NCBI GenBank assembly: GCA_951406725.2
Contig: OX597822.1
Coordinates: 24,738,001 to 24,802,000 of the forward strand
Length of the DNA: 64,000 nucleotides
From: Octopus vulgaris
Taxonomy: Eukaryota
Reading direction: 5' to 3'
Below, in pieces: positions 4,398-26,950 of the stretch. A model generated the notes under the pieces. That model saw only the letters and a list, made by a program, of their open reading frames with translations, had not been told where the DNA came from and made no database searches. Position 1 is the stretch's first letter, and each line of letters opens with the position of its first letter. Position numbers and translations under genes: made by a program.

Positions 4398-4863
4398 ATG
4401 TGTAAGAAAAAATGTATTTACTAACAGAAAAATATGCTTTTAAAATAAATGTTCTTTTACATCCCTTTTTAAAATCACTGTCACCCTAATGAAATTCCTT
4501 ACACACATGCATGCACACTGAAACACACACACACACATATGGTGTGAGCAATATACTTTTATTGGAAGTAAGCAAGTTTTACCATGAGAAAATGAAAGAG
4601 ATAAACAAATAGAGATATTTCTGTTGGTGTCACAGATTTTGAAATTTTAAAATTAAGTAATGATTTCAAGATTTGGTATATTAATGTACTAGATTTGATG
4701 TGTATATAAGCAGATTGGCTGCTCCCTCTGGGATTTGGTCAAATAATGTAGATAGCCCTTATAAAACATGAACAAGGGTTGAAAATTGATTAAGGATCTT
4801 CATAAATTTTCCAAGGTAAAACATGCCATATTTAGTGTCTGTAACTATGAAATAAGAACTTAC

Positions 4864-5022
4864 TTCAATTCCTTCTTTGTTTATTACGGAACTATCCATT
4901 TTTAATATAGCAGCTTTGATTGTACGAGGTGGAGGCAACACCTTGAGACCAATGTTGATTGCATTTGAGCGCTTTGGATCCAGGACTGTGATTTCTTTCT
5001 TGGTTGATGTATCAGCCTTCTG
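4864..5022 (-). CDS. FHOD: FHOD FH2 exon: (Q)KADTSTKKEITVLDPKRSNAINIGLKVLPPPRTIKAAILKMDSSVINKEGIE; tandem acceptor (exon may start at 5022, 5019 or 5016)
   Basis: tcttcTAG-CAG-AAG acceptor; donor GAA|gtaagt. Confidence 0.95.
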
Positions 5023-5991
5023 CTAGAAGAGGAAGGTAATTATACGGATTAAATTTGAACTAGAAAATGTGTTTTGAATTTTTTACTCATCTTTTTCTTT
5101 TTCTTTACCTAGTTTACATTGTTACTTTAGTAATAAAAACTAAGTTCAAAACAAAAACTAGATACTAGAAAATTAAGAAATCACTATTTTTAACTGTCAA
5201 AATTGAGTCATTTTCTTAGTTTTATGGATCAAAACTCATAGAAGACAAAGGACAAAATATTTAATTAATCCTTATACTAATATCTAAAACTTTATATATT
5301 CATTAAATTCTGATTAAGCCTATCATCTATCATTGTAGAATATAAATTCTTTTACAACTCTAAATTATATATATATATATATATATATATACATTGCTAT
5401 TTGTCTTTCTTGATTTATAACTGCTTTTTGTCCCCCTTTTTATTATTTTCTAAGGAGCTGCTTACAATAAGCTTATTATTGTTATTATTATTAATATTTT
5501 TACTTTTGATTACTTCATCAATAACCATTTAAAAATAATAAAATTTTCAACAAAACATGTGATTTTTTTCTTTCAGATGATGATGAGAGGCTGAAGAAAA
5601 AAAAAAGGAGGAGGAAGAAAATAAGGAAGAAAGGGATAATAATGATAAAAAAAGGAAAAGTGGTTTTTAGTGGACTGGTGGTAGGTTGTGGGAGGGTGGG
5701 AGGATGGAGCAAAAACAAGATGGATATGAATGTGATGAAATGATATAAAATTAAAATCAAGGAAAAAGAAATTAAAATTGATAAAAAGAAAAAGAAAAAA
5801 AAGAAAGAAAAGGAAACCAAAATTAAAGAGTTTACAAAACAAAAGAGAAAAAAAACTGGAGTAAAAATAAAGATAGAAAATTATAAATAAATTTAAAAGA
5901 TATGTCAGTTCTACATACTATTGAAACGAAAATTTCTAACATGCAATATAGTAGAACAAAGGTGAAAAGAAAAAAAGTGTAAAGAAGTAAA

Positions 5992-6035
<44 letters not shown>
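5992..6035. repeat. (TAC)n microsatellite
   Basis: Directly visible. Confidence 0.95.
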
Positions 6036-6898
6036 TTTCAAACCAGATTCTTGCTATGTGGTCGAATGTTCGGAAAGTGATAACCATGCAAAAGGTGGAG
6101 GTGGTTGTGTTGGTGGTGGGTACAGAAGCAGTAAGCTGACAGTGAATGTGTCTGCAGGTTGCTCTTGCAGAACACATACATATACATACATACAGTAAAC
6201 ACACTCAGAGTTGTAATAAATCTCTTCTGATGAGCCTCAGGATGAAACTGGTGGTGTTTTTACATTCGTGCATCTGTGCACTTCAGTGTGAAAATGTCTG
6301 TAGTTCTCTGCTGTTTGCATTGCTACATTGTTGATCTTCAAAATTCTTGCATTTTTTTTTTTCAATATTTTACTTTATTATTATTATTATTGTTTTCTTG
6401 GCTACTAGCTGTAAGCTGCTTTACATTGCCATTTTGACTAACAGACTGACAGCAAGAGCATTGAGGTGGGGGCATGCTTTTGAGGCATTTTTTGTAGCAG
6501 ACTCTCCAATGACCATGTCCGCATCAGGCAGGCAAAAGCCAGCTTTGCATAATGCTTTACACATGGTCTGCTTGGCAGACAAACGATTTGTATTTCACAT
6601 AATGCACCACACACACACACACACAATTTTGAATTTTTCTGCACAAAGCTGCTTTAATTGAAATAAGATAGTGTTTTTTTTTTTTCAAAATGAGTTTTTG
6701 GATAGCTTCTAGCTTCTTTGCTAAGCTCTTTATATGCAAATTTTTCAAAGTATCACAGATGTGATATAGAAAGATAAAAATCAAGGTAGCCCAAGAACGC
6801 AGATAAATGCAAAGCAAAGCCCTTGTTTTACACACATTTTTATCTCTGCAAGTGTATTTGCTATTAAAGATTTATCTGAAGCCATTTAAAACCCGATC

Positions 6899-6970
<72 letters not shown>

Positions 6971-7399
6971 ACACCAAAGATATTTTCTGTTTCAAGGAAA
7001 ATTCTGACATTTTGCTAAAAATTTGTTGGATATTTTCCAATTAGTCAGAAGAGTAACATGTATTCAATGAAAAGTTAAACACTGGAGTTTTTCTCATTAA
7101 TAAATAATAAATAGGTATTATATTTATCTTAAAAATAAATTGTGTGTGTTTATTCATCTTAGAAGTAAACTGTACGTGTATATTAAAATAAATTATTAAC
7201 CAATCATTTCTTTTTGAGCTACAATGGATGATTGTAGCAATACAACATATAGAGACTTTGTTGTATTAAGAGCAGAATATCTGGATCTCACTCAGGTAAA
7301 AATGGTAGTCCATCATAGGTAAAAAAAAATCTCGTACCAGAGATGACCAGAGGCACATAAAATTAAATATCCAAGTGTGATCATTGCCAGAATGGTTAA

Positions 7400-7718
7400 T
7401 TGGCTTCCATGCCAGTGGCACGTAAAAGGCACCATTCGAGCGTGATCGTTACCAGCATCGCCTTACTGGCACCTGTGCTGGTGGCATATGTAAAAAGATT
7501 CAAGCGAGGTCGTTGCCAGTACTGACTGCCCCCTGTGTCGGTGGCATGTAAAAGCACCCACTACATTCTTGGAGTGGTTGGTGTTAGGAAGGGCATCCAG
7601 CTGTAGAAACTCTGCTAGATCAAGATTGGTGCCTGGTGCTGCCATCTGGTTCGCCAATCCTCAGTCAAATTGTCCAACCCATGCTAGCATGGAAAGCGGA
7701 CGTTAAACGATGATGATG
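7400..7718 (+). mobile_element. Non-autonomous retroposon with tandem tggcacgtaaaa subunits and (GAT)n tail (RTE-partner type)
   Basis: Related copies at 40565-40883(+), 38885-39063(+), 38378-38570(-) and 12235-12420(-); shared aggaagggcatccagctgtagaaa and cgttaaacgatgatgat end. Confidence 0.8.
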
Positions 7719-7797
7719 GTGATTATCCTCAAATGTGAGCTGATCTCAAAACCTGCAAGTTCAATGTGCTATCCATCCAGTTGTGTGTGTTTGTGTT

Positions 7798-7862
<65 letters not shown>

Positions 7863-8871
7863 CTGCACACACATTTAGAGCCTATATTACAAAGATTTTA
7901 AAGAGTATTAAAAGGAGGGTTAAAACTGAGACTTGTTAGGGAGAGTTATCACTGATAGTATTCGGGTAGGGAAAATATGTCACTTTAAAATAGTAAAATA
8001 AAATAGAGTTCAAGTATAATGGGCAACATAGTTTTAAATTTATTAGCAGAATTACCATCATTTGTAGGTTTACACTATTTGTGAGCAGATATTTTAGTAA
8101 GTGGTCATTGCCGGCATATTAGAAGGATGTCTAAAACTGTATTGTTTTTTCCTATCACTATTCATCAAAGTGTTGGTGACTTTGGAGATAGTCACAGAAT
8201 GAGAATTCTAGATAAAATAGTCTAGCCTGAATCTTGCTTAACAGCTGAAAAGGGGTCTAAAGAAATTAAAACTGGAGTCAATAGGAAACTGAGCCCTTCT
8301 GAGAGTGCTATTAAAAGATACTAAGAGCAACATAGAACATTAGCAGCTGATTTGGCTGACATGTTAAAGACCAGGAGCAATGCCTTTGTCAGAGGCTGGA
8401 AAAATGCACAAGATCCAATCCAGCTCTATGCATTCTGGTAGTAATGAAGAGAATTAAATAATTAAAATAATATGTTCATATAACAGCAAATTGCTGAGTT
8501 TAAAATTTTTAAAATCAAAAATGAAATTGGATAGGATCAAGATCAGTAAGTATTTAAGAAATTTCTAGTAGCAGATAATTTGTTGCAAGTATTGTGTTAT
8601 AATTCTCAGGCAACACATATCCCTTTGCTAGCTTCAATGTCCTTCGTAATAAGAAGGGACATAAATCCAGCTGTCCAAAAGATCCAGCTGAACAATTTGT
8701 AAATGTGTACATTTGTTTTATGTACATTTTTTCTCAACGCTGGCATGAGTTAGATCAATATATATATATATATATATATATGATGAATTCACTTAGGTAT
8801 AAAGTTGTTAGAACTCAGTATGGTTATGCTTTAGAGTAGGTGATTAATTACAAACTCCTGTTCTATTATTC

Positions 8872-8907
<36 letters not shown>

Positions 8908-9846
8908 TGAATATAGAGATATTCTATTGACAATCCAATAATTTATTTATATTAGAATTAAATACATTAAATACTATGAATATAACATGACATAATATTA
9001 TATAAATAATTATAAAACTGTAAAAGGCCAACAAATTTCATCAGTTGGTTACTTTATATATATGTATACACACTCACACACACAACATAAGTGTTTGTGG
9101 ATTTGTTTTACATTTATTCTTTCCTATGTAAGCAAGAGCTAGTTCAGATCATGTCTATCTATCTCCCTCACATTCTATTCATACACACACACACAAAACC
9201 ATCACACAGGGCAAAATGAATGTAAAACAGTAAGAAATAAAAATCCTGTATTTCTGTCTGTTAAACTCTTCAAGGAGAATTTATAATATTTGAGCATGTA
9301 TTTTCTTAGGTAAATTTTCTAAGTGGATCTGGATATGAGGGGGGGGGGGGGGAGTTGTAGTCAAATTGATGATCCATCTTGAACTACAATTTCACAGAAA
9401 TAGATCTATTTTTTCTCTTTGTAAGCAGTTCTGATAATGGTATTTCTGAAGTCTTTATTTGAAGAAAATAAAATGAAATATAAAAAAAAAATGAAAACAA
9501 AAGAAAAATGAAGAAAATTCAGACAGAACCCATGCATTAAAAAAGGGAAGAAAAAGAAAATGACTGTATGTGTAAAGATGAAAAATAAAAATGAATCATG
9601 AATATTTCTGGATGAGGGTAGGGAGGAAGAGTCGAAGTTGATGATTTCTTGGGAAACGGTAAATGGCTGATGGAGAAAGAAAATGAAAACAACACTTTAC
9701 ATAAATATCAGAGAGGCTTGCATTTTAAACACATTTCTGTGCAACAAAGCACAATCTTAGACTATGGATATAAGAAATAGCAAACAAAATTATTTAATTT
9801 ATAATTTTTTTTAAATATCCCAAAGAGAATTCAATAAACTTAAAAG

Positions 9847-9877
<31 letters not shown>

Positions 9878-11553
9878 AAAAAAAAGCATAGAGTTACAAA
9901 AGTTACTAAAAGGTAGGGGGAAAGCAATTAAAACTAAAAACCCAAAACCACACACACAAAAAAAGATCTTTTAGTAGATAGAACTTAAGCTGTTTCAGAC
10001 ATTAAGAATAAAAATCCTTAAAATTTAGATTTTCATTCGTGTTTAAAGCTGTTTACAGTTTAGATGGAGTCACCCTTGAAGCCTTTTCAGCTTAATAACC
10101 TACTATGGTGACAAAAGTAGTCTGATATGTTAACTGGAATTAAATTTAAAATCGTTTTTGTTAGAATAACAATATCTTAAAGATCTCATATTTTCATTCG
10201 ATACATTTCTTTACTCCAGTTTCTTTTAGTATTAAATTAATCACTCTTTATATCATCTAAACAAAAGATCAGAGTGAAACCAGGTTGGATGCAGTACATG
10301 GGTTTGTGCTATGTTTAGCACATTCATAAGTTTCTATCAATTTATCGGCAGTGCATTTAGTGTTGAATTATAATTAATTTATTGGCTTCATTCTACTTGG
10401 CAATAAACTTTTAATACATATAGAAACGAATTGCTTCCCCTTAGTACATATTTGGATTTATTTATAATTATAATATGATTGAATTTGTAGAGAAAATGAT
10501 GAACCCTCCGGGTGATTTCAACATAAAAGCATCCAGTGGTTCAAACAATTAGACGACCTACTCATTGATTAACTTATGAAATGGCTGAGTATTCCACAGA
10601 TGTATTAAGTATCCCTTGTGTAATTCTCAAGTAGAATCAGCAGAACACATTGAATTGAAACTGAGCCTTTGAATTACAGAGTCCATCTGATGGTCTTCTA
10701 CAGTTTCCGTTTACCCAGTTACACTCAAAAGACTTCAGTCGATCCAAAGTTAAAGACACTTTCCCAACAAACCATTCAGTGGTATTGAACTTGAGACCTC
10801 CTGGTTGCAAAGTGAACTGCTTAACCATTAAGCCATTCCGACATCCATTGAGAAGAAAAGTAAACTGAGACAAAATAATATCTTTTTCAGTGAATACTGC
10901 AGAAAAGTGTTGATTTAATATAAATTTTATGATATTGTCTCTCATATCTAACAAAGAGCAATCATAAAAATAGGTTTTGCTATTGTTTCCTAAACTATAT
11001 ACAATTCAACAGAAATCTTAATAAACCATTGCAGTTTGTCACACAACACAGCACACAGTATAATATGCTTGTAAATAAAATTAACTTCACAAAATACAGC
11101 CTTAAAAAGATAACATATTTCAGCTTTGCAAAAGAAAAAAAAAGATCGGCCAGAAAAATCTTCACACATTTTCTGTAAAACGTTAAAAAAAAAAAAGGGA
11201 GAAGCACAAGAAAACTTAAGTAAAAAAAAATGGAAAATTTGCTTATATTAATAATCCAAGAGTTTACTTTTAGTTTAGTATGAAACTTTCAATTAAGAAT
11301 CAATACTAATTTGTTTTCATCCATTTTTATTTCTCTCTGGCAATGGTTAGTATCCATTGCGAAGAAACACCAGAGAGAATACGAAAGAGCACATGAGAGG
11401 TATTACTTTTCTGTTGCATGAAGTAGCTTCACCTGTAGCAGATGTTATTGCAGCTACAAATCAAGAGCAGGCCTTGTAGCTCACATGTGAGCCTAGCAGA
11501 GATGATTACTGGACAAGAACAAGAGCTGACAACAATATATATATAGATATATA

Positions 11554-11971
11554 TCTATTATAAAAAATCCATTCTGTTCTGTCTGTGTGTGTGTCTTCTA
11601 GGATCTCGGGCATCCTCCATCCGATTGCGCTCAAATTTGATATGTAGATACTGACGGTATCAGGGGTGTATAATTTTTGAAAAAATTACAAAAATTGATT
11701 CCAGGTGAGAATGCGATCGATAAAGCCGTGGGAACGTATATTTGTATGCACAAGTACATCAGCTGTTGCGATTGATACTACGCGTACGCAAGAAAAATGC
11801 ACGTGCAGTTTGCGCAAAGAAAGAGGGCCTGTTTGGTGTCTCAAATTTAGGTTAAATCAGTGTTTCTCAAAGGGGAGGCCTATGGGATCACCGGACAAGT
11901 TGTTTTGAGAAAATTTGGTTTAAATGTTTGACAACTCAGCACCGTCCATTGGGCGTCGGGTGTTTTGCTAG
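11554..11971 (+). mobile_element. Non-autonomous Helitron-like element
   Basis: Starts TC, internal tctg/tg microsatellite, subterminal hairpin gcacc...ggtgt, ends CTAG, inserted between A and T. Confidence 0.6.
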
Positions 11972-12474
11972 TATATATATATATTAGGGGTTACAATAGT
12001 CAAGGAACATACCAAATGAAAACTGAAGAAAAGGTTTTCATTTCAGGACCCTTTATAGTGATGCGTTTTTATGTTTCAGTCTTGACTACATAACTAAGCA
12101 TGCAATTAAAATTTCAGTAACTGCATAATTATATTTACAAATATTATTTTACTGACAACTTTTTTTCTAAAATTCACAATGATATCTTTTTTTAAAGAAT
12201 TATATTGGAATCTTTCCTCAAACTATATACATATCATCATCATTGTTTAGCATTCATTTTCCATGCTGACATGGGTTGGACAGTTCAATAACAACCGATA
12301 GCCAGAGGACTGCACCAAGTTTCAAAGTCTGCTTTCTATGGCTGGATGCCCTTCTTAATGCCATCCACTTTACAGAATGTACGTGGTACATTTTGGTTGT
12401 ACTGGTGCTAGGGAGGTCACCAAGTAACTCACAAGACAAGAGCCCTTAAATGAGTTGGGGTGTAATAAATATAT

Positions 12475-12518
<44 letters not shown>

Positions 12519-12542
12519 AGTGAGAACCTGTCACTTCTGTGA

Positions 12543-12578
<36 letters not shown>

Positions 12579-14229
12579 TGGAATCAATTAGCAATTGGCA
12601 TGCTTTTCCGAATTTCCTAAAGTCTAAGATAGAATTGCCAAATGTTAGATGACACCTAATTTAAATTCATAAATTATTCAGTTGGTTTTCATAGCAAGTA
12701 TAACTCTGAAATAATAATTACAGATATTTCAATATCCAACTAATGTACATAGATGTTGGGTAAAATCTGCTTTAATAATTTTTGTGGTTTGCAAGTTATA
12801 TTTAGAAGTAGATGTAGGGAAATTTAACTAAGTTATTCAACAGTAAACAATCATAAACAGAAAGGAACCCATTTTTTTAAAACTATAGATATATATTATA
12901 TCTCCACATGAAGATAGTTACATTATTCAGAAATATGCCTGTAATATAATCTGTATAATTTCCTTGTATTTTTAAATGCAAGCTCTGCAGGATATATATA
13001 TAGAGAGCGATGGATGTATATATGAGTTAAGATGTGGTTAATATCATAAGACAAAAGTATAATAGAAATTTTGGATGAAATTCAACAGCCAGAAGTGTCA
13101 CAAATTACACTACAAACATTTAACTTTTAGTTTAAAGTGAAACCTCTGACAAACCGTAAGTGAAGCTGTGTCTGTTGAGCCACGTTGAAAACCAACCAGG
13201 TAATTGAAAAATTACAATATTCAAACTTTACGATGAGACACACTTGGTAGACACACCAAAAAGAAAACTTATCACACATAGCTTGGTTATAGAAGCAACA
13301 AACCCAGCATTAAGAGCAGAGCCATATGGTATATAGGCTTAATGATCAGAGAAAACAGAAAATAGCAAGTGGAAAATAGTCTCCCTTACTGGAAGTTGAA
13401 ATGTTCAAAACTATTTATTCATAGTTATGAAGTGTGATTCAAATTCATGTGCATATATATATGCATATATATATATACACACATATACACATACATATAT
13501 ATAATACACATGATGGTAAGACATCTGGAATTTGTTTACATTCCTGCAATGGATCTGTATTAAAATGAAAGGATAGATGGATTGAAGTTCAATTCAATAA
13601 GAAGTGTTGGTAAAGAATTTTGGCAAAGAATAACTGTAAAGTTAAGTTTCTGAAACTTTTGAGATGGACCCTGTCATTTGCCACTATTCTTTGAATGAAG
13701 TACAAAGGAACAAGAGATATACTTTTCATTGAAAGAAAGAATTATTCAATCAAATTCTGATAATATACAGGTTTCTTTTCATTTTTCTCTGCTGGTAGAT
13801 GTGGTAGTTTTTATTCCTACCTTCAATGAAGTGTGTCAGTCAGATTCTCAGACTCAACAAATTATTGTTTTTTTTATTGATAAAAACACATCATATGCAA
13901 TGATGTGTTGAAAAAATTATTAATGCAAGGTGTGTGAACCAATGATATATTTTGACTGAAGAAACTAAGGATAACTATACAAAAAAATATATATGTGGCA
14001 TCCAAACTTTCTAATGAAGATGATAGGAAAGAGAGAAGGAAAGAAGATGATGAAGAAACGAGCGAAGATAGTGTAAAGAGGAATGACAGATTAGAAGGAT
14101 GGAATACTTTTTGGAAATAGTTGAAACTGATGAAAAATAAGACGAATGAATATATGTATAAAGATATACATATATATATATGAAGATACATGTGTGTATG
14201 ACCACCATCTAGGGTGGTCAGTGCCTTAC

Positions 14230-14238
14230 CACGACTTC
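14230..14238 (-). CDS. Candidate 9-nt microexon (EVV) in the FH2 linker
   Basis: aactaacag|GAAGTCGTG|gtaagg; phase 0-0 matches the host intron; long AG-free zone, UGC and GCAUG motifs upstream. Confidence 0.65.
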
Positions 14239-15379
14239 CTGTTAGTTGGCAGCGAACATGCAATCATGCGTGACATCCAGCAACAATGTGCATGAAAAGA
14301 GAAAATAAGCGAGTGTGATTAATAACAATGTTCGACCAGACAAGTGCTATAAGCCTTTCCTGAAAGAGAAGTGTGAAAAATCAAGTCAATGGACGACAGC
14401 GCTGCGCTGTGGCTTTTGCATTGCAGTTGCAGGGTAGCTTGCTTGTTTGGGTAAGTGCAGTATAGGGGAGGAGAAATATAAAATCAAACATCTATGATAA
14501 TTTTTACAAGTACGTAACATTCTTAATTGTGGGTAAAAACATAGTAAAACATAGTTATTCTGGTAACAAGATATTATTGATAATTTACTTGAAAGAAAAA
14601 GACATTTAATACTTTATATCAGTATTGGGGTAAAAATAACAGGGAATTCATAAATGTTATTCAAACAATGAATCAGTGACTGGGTTGGTGGAAACATGTA
14701 ACCAATAATGCTATTGTTTACAAATTGCAATATAAAATTAATTGATTAATAAATTAGATATACTGTAAAACAAATTATAACTCAAATTTGATGTTCAGTT
14801 TTCAAATCCAACATTTCAAACATATAATATTAATTTTCTAACTTAAAATTAAAATTTTGCCATACCCTCTAGATCTTATAAACTTATACCACATTTGGTT
14901 TTATAAAGAGATTGTCTATGAAAAATGGTCATTTTTTTTTTACATTAGACTTAACACCAGTATTTCACAAAAATCCTAGCTTATAAATACCACTTCAATA
15001 AGGTGGCTGGATTTGATCTCAGAATACAAAGAGCCAGATCTGCTATCACAAGCATCCCGTCTGATGTCTTAACAATTCTGTCAACTTACTGCCTTGGACT
15101 ACATCATTATCTACTAAACCCATTGCAGGATAAAAGGCAAATTTGGCACCAGAGGGAATTGAACTCAATGTACTGAGAGCTGGATACAAGTATTACAAGA
15201 CATTTTATCTGCTGCCTTAACAACTCCACCAACTTGTTGCCATAAACACAGGTGGACATATTGATGTCCTGACATAAGCATAAATGAGTACACACAATTT
15301 TCAAGGGCTGCGAATAATTGATTAAACATATCTCCATGCTAAGAATATCATTATGTGGCCATATTCAAAGTGGGATAAT

Positions 15380-17182: not shown

Positions 17183-18110
17183 AATCCTTTCTACTATAGG
17201 CACAAGGGCTGAAATTTTGGGGAAGAGGACTAGTCTATTATATCAACCCCAGAGTTTTACTGGTACCTAATTTACTGAGCCTGAAAAGACAAAAGGCAAA
17301 GATGACCTTGGCGGAATTTGAACTCTATACAGCGACTGGCAAAATACCAGTAAGCATTTCTTTCAGAGCGCTAATGATTCTGCCAGCTCGCCGCTTTCTA
17401 CCAAGGATAATAATAATGATGGTTTCTAATTGTCAAACAAGGACAGCAGTTTTGATGAGAAAGAGTAAGTCAATTATACTGATCCCCAGTACTTGACTGG
17501 TACTTTGTTTTGTCAGCCTTGAAAGGATGAAAGGTAAAGCTGACCTCAGCATGATTTGAACTCAGAATATAAAGAGCTAGAAGAAATGGTGCTAAGTATT
17601 TTGTCCATTGTGCTAATTATTCTAAGAGCTTGCCACCCTAATGGCTTCAGATTTTAGCACAAGGCCATCAGTTTTGAGGGAAGGAAGCAAGTCAATTATG
17701 TTGACCCCATTAATTGACTGGTACTTTATTTTTTTAATACTGAAAGGATGAAAGGCAATGTTGACTTCAGTAGGTTTTGAACCTAGAATGTAGTAGAACT
17801 AGAAGAAATGTGCTGCTAAACATTTTGTCTGATGTGCTAATGATTCTGCCAGCTTACTGCATTTGCCTTAATAATAATAATAATAATAATAATGATTTCA
17901 AATTTTGGCACAAGGCCAGCAATTTCAGGGAAGGGTGTAAGACAATTACATCAACCTTAGTACTCAACTGGTACTTATTTTATTGACCCTGAAAGGATCA
18001 AAGGCAAAGTCAGTCTCGGTGGAATTTGAACTTAGAATATAAAGATGGACGAAATGCCACTAAGCATTCTGATCAGCACCCTAATGGTTCTGCCAGCTTG
18101 CTGCCTTAAA
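17183..18110 (-). mobile_element. Tandem array of about 4 tRNA-derived SINEs (Meta-domain-like)
   Basis: Repeated ~220-bp unit with B-box gagttcaaattcc, central gcctttcatcc...gataaattaagtaccag and (ATT)n tails. Confidence 0.85.
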
Positions 18111-21377: not shown

Positions 21378-22342
21378 CTTTTGTTTCAGATCATTCGTTC
21401 TAGATTCAAATAAATGTTCTAACTTCTGGGTATCTATTTTGACTGGCGCTAATTTGTTCCAAATTGTCTCTCCTTTGGTAACAGGGTGTGGAGGTACATT
21501 GCCTTGCAATGGTCTCCAGTGAAGCTTCAAGGTCTTTTTGTTTTTCTTAATGGCCATAGAAGGTGGGGAAGGAGCTGGAGGTGCTGAGGGTGGCATTGGG
21601 ACGCCAGGTCTTCCAAAGGGTGGTGGTGGAGGTGGAGGTGGGGCTCCAGGTATAGGAGGTGGGGGTGGTGGCCCATGACCACCTGGAGGTGGGGGTGGCG
21701 GTGGGGGCCCGCCAGGTGGCGGTGGAGGTGGTGGGGGTAACCCTCCAGGTGGTGGTGGAGGCGGAGGCACAGCACTGCCACCAAAACCAGGTATGGGAGT
21801 GGAGAATATGTCAGTGTCATCGTCAGGATGTAGGTCAGTGAAGTCCATGTTTTTAATCTTCAAAGGACGACTGAGTCTCTTACTAATCTTCTCCCATTCT
21901 AGATCACCTTCAGATTTCTTAACTTCAGGTTTTGGAACCTCTTTCGGTGGTTCTGGTAGTTTCGCTATTGACTTTTGGCTCAAATCCTCCTTCATTTTAC
22001 TAATAAACCCGCTCACATCACCCTGGGGTGCTGTAACCTCAATAGATGGCTTCGCTTCACCTGTCTTCACTTGGAATCGATCCCGAATACTATTTATGGC
22101 TTTCTCCTGCTCTGGTTCAGGTTCTGCAGGCTTCTTGTGAACTGTAGCCCATTGTTTGTTTGGCATTTCAGGAACATCTTGTTTCTCTGGGCGCTCTTCA
22201 GCTTGGATATTGATAGAGTTTCTCCAAGTTTCTGGATCGACATCTTCCTCTGCATTTGGAGTAAAACCACCCATTTTCGACTCCCGCCATTTTTGTAAAG
22301 GTGACAAATTTTCTTTCTTGTCTTGCTCAATAAAAGCATTCA
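21378..22342 (-). CDS. FHOD: FHOD large exon (965 nt): linker, polyproline FH1 and FH2 lasso (KTLKLHW...IW...LEHLFESR)
   Basis: ORF 21300..22376; ttcag|TG...AAG|gtgaaa. Confidence 0.97.
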
Positions 22343-26737: not shown

Positions 26738-26950
26738 CATCCACACACTGGGGATTACTAAGGTTATTTTGAGACAATGATCGATCACTGCTCGTCTCCT
26801 CACATTGTGGTGAGGGAGCAGAAGTGGAAAATCTACGAATTAAGGAATTTAGCCATGTTTTGGCAGGAGTGTCTTTCTTTATTTCTTGTTCTTTTATAAG
26901 AGAGCGCTGATGCTGTCTTCGCTCCTGCCGTTTTTGCTGCGCATTGAGAT
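26738..26950 (-). CDS. FHOD: FHOD linker exon (213 nt, phase 1->1, probable cassette): LNAQQKRQERRQHQRSLIKEQEIKKDTPAKTWLNSLIRRFSTSAPSPQCEETSSDRSLSQNNLSNPQCVD
   Basis: atgcag|AT...GATG|gtaaga; 71 open codons with coding-like composition in AT-rich surroundings. Confidence 0.8.

Follow-up and report, generated by a model that had tools for sequence, protein, structure and literature searches.

The FHOD formin gene of Octopus vulgaris contains a 9-nt cassette microexon, GAAGTCGTG, which inserts the peptide EVV into the linker of the FH2 domain and is alternatively spliced in Octopus. As judged from the sequences compared, the exon is not specific to the octopus, equivalents being present in the same intron of molluscs, arthropods, and other invertebrates. 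The reality of the octopus exon is practically certain, resting on independent support from annotated RefSeq isoforms, contig ends, and orthologous loci. In the explanation that best accommodates these observations, (i) the exon would represent, in the octopus, a microexon already carried by the ancestor of protostomes, (ii) it would likely be left out where RBFOX-type proteins are bound directly upstream, and (iii) EVV, through the extra length and the single negative charge that it brings to the FH2 linker, is predicted to loosen the hold on the actin filament end; the joint reading, comprising all of these elements, is proposed with moderate confidence.

Host Gene and Exon Architecture

Positions refer to the window, the whole 64,000-nt stretch of DNA analysed, and the gene is read on the minus strand (Table 1). 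The exons match isoform X1 of O. sinensis FHOD3-like, which identifies the gene as an FHOD formin (GBD/FH3-FH1-FH2, orthologous to FHOD1/3 and Fhos); both exons flanking the microexon are 100% identical to that isoform, and the best PDB match of the gene is the FHOD1 N-terminus (E 6e-112). The host intron, 16,355 nt in length, lies in phase 0, its 5' border being the AAG that closes the upstream exon at 21378 and its 3' border the acceptor TAG/CAG/AAG at 5022/5019, the downstream exon starting as Q-KADTSTKK from the first position or without the Q from the second. The minus strand reads ...gccaactaacag GAAGTCGTG gtaaggcactgaccaccctagatggtggtca, the middle element being the exon, which has the properties of the microexon class: a length of 9 nt (range 3-30 nt), canonical AG and GT borders, and a preserved frame (phase 0-0). 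These junctions and each element of the 9-nt exon described in the initial annotation were found at the positions given there, and the AG-free stretch that it put at about 105 nt counts 106 nt, with the displaced pyrimidine tract, the four TGC, the two GCATG (one of them TGCATG), and the CTAAC abutting the AG all confirmed.

Table 1. Features of the FHOD linker microexon and its surroundings (window positions)
Feature	Positions	Strand	Basis
Cassette microexon GAAGTCGTG, EVV, phase 0-0	14230..14238	-	Sequence; Octopus RefSeq isoforms; contig ends
Microexon 5' splice site GTAAGG	14224..14229	-	Sequence; X9 contig end at 14230; same in L005 and L006
3' splice site AG (14240-14239), AG-free zone of 106 nt, displaced pyrimidine tract (14309-14294)	14239..14346	-	
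Constitutive exon preceding the intron (FH1 polyproline, FH2 lasso; last residues ...NDLKQK)	21378..22342	-	100% match to O. sinensis X1
Downstream exon, linker remainder and knob start, tandem acceptors 5022/5019 (with or without Q)	4864..5022	-	Annotated isoforms; contig ends
Conserved intronic block TTTTCATGC	14290..14298	-	Identical in octopus, L005, and L006
Block TGCTGGATGTC, with UGC and YGCY (MBNL-type motif)	14272..14282	-	Identical in L005, partly retained in L006
Two GCAUG motifs, the second being TTGCATGT (14263-14256), a conserved, putative RBFOX-type site	14256..14269	-	Sequence
ACTAAC abutting the AG, not conserved	14241..14246	-	Comparison with L005 and L006
8-bp hairpin, present, probably incidental	14199..14220	-	Chance and conservation checks

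Other parts of the same gene also vary in splicing. The tandem acceptor (window 5017-5025, minus strand) adds or omits a Q; the Q form is also found in protein P0006 (KQK-Q-KAET), and the acceptor pair may be conserved beyond Octopus. Isoform X6 of O. sinensis omits an exon of ~71 codons located upstream of FH1 (window about 26739-26950, minus strand). A 21-nt alternative exon (L088:1830-1850, minus strand; near 24813840, ~12 kb past the window end), annotated in both forms in O. sinensis and O. bimaculoides, changes GFVD-N-RQ to GFVD-KRSSREQS-RQ in the N-terminal GBD/FH3 region; in contrast to the linker exon, it displays an ordinary pyrimidine tract adjoining the AG.

Alternative Use in Octopus

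By itself, the splice pattern is no rarity in an intron of this size, since a loose splice rule gives four candidates in the 16,355 nt and at least one candidate in 82% of shuffles. Under a strict donor rule the intron retains six candidates, the longest AG-free zone among them, 106 nt versus 69 nt for the next, being that of the GAAGTCGTG site. A further 9-nt splice-like site, AAG/GCAAATGCA/GTAAGC, follows a TTA repeat at window 17858-17866 (minus strand); it is absent from the annotated isoforms seen and probably arose by chance.

The usage of GAAGTCGTG is documented by annotated isoforms. The nine FHOD RefSeq proteins of O. sinensis (XP_029642009-18) comprise six with KQK-EVVQ-KAD, one with KQK-EVV-KAD, and two with KQK-KAD, EVV being present in 7/9, and the five proteins of O. 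bimaculoides comprise one with EVVQ (XP_014769629.1), one with Q alone, and three with neither. The microexon and both acceptors are already part of the NCBI automatic gene models of these two species.

Contig alignment covered the region 4800-14500 in four of the 24 listed runs (X3, X9, X14, and X19), all consisting of assembled contigs, guessed to derive from RNA and carrying no tissue labels. Each junction predicts a distinct last matching base, computed after the alignment: (i) 5024 for skipping with acceptor 5022, (ii) 5021 for skipping with 5019, (iii) 5023 for inclusion with 5022, and (iv) 5020 for inclusion with 5019. Long contigs stop at 5023 in X3 and X19, corresponding to inclusion with 5022, and at 5021 in X14, corresponding to skipping with 5019, so that both tandem acceptors used in the annotated isoforms are also fitted by contig ends. 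In X9, a single 257-nt contig (record 32, depth 9) spans 14467-14230 and halts exactly at the microexon donor, followed by 19 unaligned letters, which fits a molecule with the downstream intron spliced out first. As inferred from these alignment ends, all four runs agree with use of the exon, two with inclusion, one with skipping, and one with usage of the donor. The RNA junctions put forward in the initial annotation are in this way partly substantiated, the contig ends within the aligned region fitting 14230>5022 inclusion, skipping to 5019, and donor use. Separately, dispersed intron repeats at window ~7400-7720 and 11560-11960 are covered by contigs to a very great depth in each of the four runs and are probably abundant short interspersed elements.

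The notion that GAAGTCGTG is a chance splice-like sequence, never used, draws on the ease with which the loose pattern is met at random in most 16-kb introns, but is contradicted by the isoforms in two Octopus species, by contig ends at the predicted bases, and by orthologous exons; the annotated isoforms and contig ends rule it out as an explanation, leaving it an extremely small probability. The proposed insertion of EVV into the FHOD FH2 linker by alternative splicing is upheld by the Octopus isoforms, the contig ends, and an orthologue model.

Probable Orthologous Exons across Invertebrates

Among the 120 homologous proteins listed out of 4370 matches, 20 carry an insertion starting with Asp or Glu at this junction, 99 carry none, and one is unreadable. 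Pairs of forms with and without the insertion occur in molluscs, including Pomacea (EM, 7/8), Biomphalaria (EV), Gigantopelta (EM, 2/4 examined), and the Pacific oyster (DV), and in arthropods, with E as the inserted residue, including Homarus (4/9), Centruroides (2/5), Tribolium, and Acanthoscelides. The insertion comprises one to three residues in protostomes other than the octopus, and was not seen in the models of Patella (0/11), Diabrotica (0/14), and Mytilus californianus (0/3). An acidic insertion was likewise not found in 50 vertebrate-type proteins or in the amphioxus, hemichordate, and brittle-star proteins, a deuterostome absence that carries little weight because gene models miss microexons. 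Protein P0364 displays a non-acidic TS insertion, and a few other odd insertions among the homologues may be gene-model errors.

Genomic loci were collected by a metagenome-contig scan in which 80 of 173 confirmed loci were kept, comprising (i) 34 genomic loci with both intron borders, (ii) 42 with the downstream border only, and (iii) four spliced records. The intron sits at the identical codon in 34/34 two-border loci, of which 24 were analysed after omission of 10 near-duplicates. Each of the 24 introns contains a candidate exon of 3, 6, or 9 nt that has a strong donor and is preceded by 34-181 nt free of AG, the candidates being GAG, GAAACA, GAATCT, GACTCG, GACCCG, GACACG, GAAACG, GAAGAG, GACACGGAG, GAAGTTGAG, and GGATTCGAT. 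The first codon specifies Asp or Glu (GA start) in 23/24, the exception being L079, which starts with GG; no candidate encodes Lys or Arg at any codon. With the octopus included, candidates number 25/25 against 3.1 expected from shuffles and GA-starting candidates 24/25 against 0.15, and the remainder of the same loci yields expectations of 2.1 and 0.26, respectively, values to be read with the candidate rule having been set after inspection of the loci and the loci forming only about eight groups. By best match these groups are bivalve-like, bryozoan-like, Daphnia-like, mite-like, and springtail-like, together with three that have no close named relative. A check independent of the rule is provided by L006, where the genomic candidate GATGTG encodes DV, identical to the insertion of the oyster proteins and to that of the spliced record L050. 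The 42 loci with the downstream border only, many of which end short of the exon, gave a GA-starting candidate in five, another candidate in three, and none in 34; in L018, L041, L051, L068, and L078 no candidate was found within ~2.0-2.5 kb.

An ancestral intron in which microexons were gained several times independently would suit a linker that tolerates insertions and a splice consensus that favours GA...G. In line with such gains, exon lengths (3, 6, and 9 nt) and sequences differ between groups, as does the upstream architecture, and the L079 candidate starts with GG; the GAG of the 3-nt candidates could follow from the splice-site consensus alone, and a preprint reports that neural exons were often gained independently at corresponding positions (10.64898/2026.09.05.749416). 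Against this reading, the candidates are present in all 24 introns with no gap, the first codon is almost invariably acidic, Lys and Arg are encoded by none of the candidates, and intronic blocks are common to the octopus and bivalve-like loci, so that independent gains are judged improbable. A single origin of the microexon, ancestral to protostomes, is inferred with considerable confidence. The idea of an octopus-only innovation is accordingly not borne out by the isoform pairs and orthologous loci across molluscs and arthropods, and the conservation of the site in related species, on which the initial annotation had made its proposal depend, is observed.

Upstream Regulatory Sequence

The blocks TTTTCATGC and TTGCATGT and the donor GTAAGG are common to the octopus and the bivalve-like loci L005 and L006. 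The colinear motif chain between octopus and L005 reaches a score of 28, a value attained by none of the control windows (0/836 from octopus, where the highest score is 16, and 0/106 from L005, where it is 9). The intronic blocks shared by octopus and bivalve-like loci indicate common descent at least within molluscs. Two other measures were set aside: a loose motif score without colinearity, reached by 56/2000 random windows, probably via overlapping T-runs, and the 10-mer CACTCGCTTA common to two Daphnia-like loci, discounted as expected occasionally among 23 comparisons.

RBFOX, QKI, and MBNL are reported usually to repress when bound upstream of an exon (PMC12064062). The octopus site displays the layout of an RBFOX-repressed exon, with a conserved (U)GCAUG upstream and near the exon and none just downstream, binding being predicted from sequence. 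GCATG lies within 100 nt upstream in 6/24 rows (octopus, L005, L030, L031, L074, and L077) as well as in L006; on the downstream side, 1/24 rows has it within 60 nt. It is missing upstream in all five arthropod-like loci and in groups of nine (0/9) and four (0/4) loci, so RBFOX control cannot be general. The UGC stands at -13 before the AG in octopus and at -11 in L005, and is absent upstream in one group of nine orthologous loci. In a set of eight loci (L007, L019, L020, L023, L024, L028, L052, and L076) the sequence GAAACA/GTAAGTACAT is kept almost unchanged, a downstream TGTGTTAAT...CAGCTTC-like block is shared, and UGC and GCAUG are absent upstream, a pattern suggesting that a distinct regulatory code governs the same exon there.

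Two further elements of the initial annotation fare less well. The hairpin tgaccacc/ggtggtca is present as described, but it is neither above chance nor conserved: nine such sites occur in the intron, the folding z of -0.75 is no better than that of shuffles, and it is absent from L005 and L006; it is rejected as a regulatory element and is probably incidental. The ACUAAC motif, considered as a conserved QKI/STAR or branch-point site, is rejected, since it is not conserved in these two closest loci. Abutting the AG, the ACTAAC sequence is also too close for a usual branch point.

Possible Neural Control and the Probable Fly Counterpart

The octopus exon could alternatively be a neuron-specific microexon switched on by an eMIC domain of the SRRM3/4 type, giving a longer FHOD linker in neurons, as in vertebrate DAAM1. 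The mollusc site displays the corresponding layout, with a long AG-free zone, a displaced pyrimidine tract, UGC near the 3' splice site, and CUAAY, all features of fly eMIC targets (PMC8797185). The octopus genome contains an eMIC-domain match over the Pfam cut-off (PF15230, 32.6 bits), and microexon inclusion differs between contig runs. This layout and the domain match leave neural control a certain weight. On the other hand, a 3-nt exon of fly Fhos belongs to the control group ASE, outside the eMIC-dependent, eMIC-sensitive, and neural groups (PMC8797185), one group of nine orthologous loci lacks any upstream UGC, and several unrelated records (P0028, P0047, P0141, L027, and L050) were assembled along the inclusion form, circumstantial evidence as these carry no tissue labels. 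A neuron-specific eMIC switch is consequently regarded as rather unlikely. In the octopus genome, an exon for an eMIC-like (SRRM_C) segment, RRPGSPSHLDKRRITR, is located at G000:C25:37317492-37317626 (L085), in the probable octopus Srrm234 gene.

The fly exon in question is DmeEX0004376, a Drosophila Fhos microexon of 3 nt listed in table S2 in group ASE, which takes in exons that are alternative in at least 25% of samples and assigned to none of the eMIC-dependent, eMIC-sensitive, or neural sets (PMC8797185). It is the sole 3-nt event among the four Fhos rows of that table (PMC8797185); the supplement of PMC8042270 contains only an 18-nt Fhos candidate. The fly exon is probably orthologous to the octopus linker exon, judging from its being the only 3-nt Fhos event, from the tephritid Anastrepha protein with TK-E-KQQ versus TK-KQQ in D. 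navojoa, and from GAG in the arthropod-like loci. The two belong to the same gene family, and 3-nt GAG candidates occupy this intron of arthropod-like loci; the fly exon differs from that of octopus in length (3 versus 9 nt) and is represented by a table row that gives its ASE group and no function. Taken together, the exon is likely not restricted to nerve, and regulation that is broad and non-switch-like, with RBFOX/MBNL as repressors in place of an eMIC switch confined to neurons, has in our view a slightly better than even chance of being correct.

Predicted Effect on the FH2 Linker

The microexon and the tandem acceptor together generate four octopus FH2 linker forms, of 17, 18, 20, and 21 residues. 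In the AlphaFold model of the snail-cluster protein P0141, the insertion occupies residues 59-60 of a coil (50-74, pLDDT<50) flanked by helices 41-47 and 75-86, and the family profile aligns this stretch to the mDia1 linker; no solved FHOD FH2 structure was found among the PDB matches. The insertion is predicted to fall within the flexible linker that joins lasso and knob, after the final helix of the former and before the first helix of the latter. The net charge is +3 in 40 of the 55 distinct linkers without the insertion and +2 in 13 of the 14 that carry it.

In simulations of other formins, linker lysines form salt bridges with acidic actin residues, and linker swaps cited in the same source altered the lifetime on the filament end and not gating (PMC6056239). 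Inclusion of the DAAM1 linker microexon is reported to lower polymerization and actin binding (PMC12056172). By analogy with these simulations, swaps, and the DAAM1 exon, inclusion of EVV would weaken and loosen the FH2-actin contact, and an effect of the insertion on processivity or nucleation is fairly likely. A point against a functional effect is the length of EVV, three residues, far below the 9-10 of DAAM1. The exon could indeed be real and near-neutral for the protein, a tolerated length noise in a floppy loop comparable to the adjacent tandem acceptor: the linker is modelled as unstructured, its length varies between species, and the acceptor with or without Q already changes it. Such neutrality is hard to reconcile with a 3-9-nt exon retaining its own splice sites across molluscs and arthropods, with the conserved blocks, and with the narrow charge distribution, and it is considered quite improbable. 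A more specific form of the functional reading holds that the microexon, of one to three codons, predates the split of molluscs and arthropods and was selected for one negative charge rather than for length, acting as an electrostatic switch of filament-end residence that RBFOX/MBNL would operate in muscle-type tissues and that would have arisen separately from the DAAM1 exon; this is offered as a tentative possibility.

Relation to Known Exons and Significance

The parallel drawn in the initial annotation with the linker microexon of vertebrate DAAM1 holds for position, DAAM1 being a member of a different formin subfamily. Both exons keep the frame, lie in the FH2 lasso-knob linker, and lengthen the dimer hinge (PMC12056172), whereas the DAAM1 exon encodes 9-10 residues versus 1-3, is restricted to vertebrates, and is neural and SRRM3/4-dependent (PMC12056172). 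The muscle exon T(D/E)5XE of vertebrate FHOD3 resembles the octopus exon in being short, acidic, and located in the FHOD FH2 domain (PMC3002041); it is tissue-regulated, comprises 24 nt at the C-terminal end of FH2, and provides a CK2 site and p62 binding (PMC3002041). Its position, at the FH2 C-terminal end rather than in the linker, rules out the two exons being equivalent.

In the literature searched, no description was found of an FHOD/Fhos linker microexon or of its conservation, and the octopus exon may be listed in VastDB. That database covers octopus, and Torres-Mendez 2019 reportedly covers octopus microexons and may list the FHOD exon. A 2026 preprint that covers 20 bilaterians, octopus among them, identifies two neural microexons as ancestral, APBB and MADD; neither FHOD nor formin comes up in its main text (10.64898/2026.09.05.749416). 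The exon is known from annotation; no publication describing its deep conservation was found.

The number of microexons known to be as old as the base of large animal groups is small, and the FHOD linker exon appears to span molluscs, arthropods, and further invertebrates. The probable fly counterpart amounts to a single codon, which makes the contributions of linker charge and length to formin processivity directly testable in Drosophila and in vitro. Together, FHOD and DAAM1 suggest that the FH2 linker twice became a site of splicing-tuned actin assembly.
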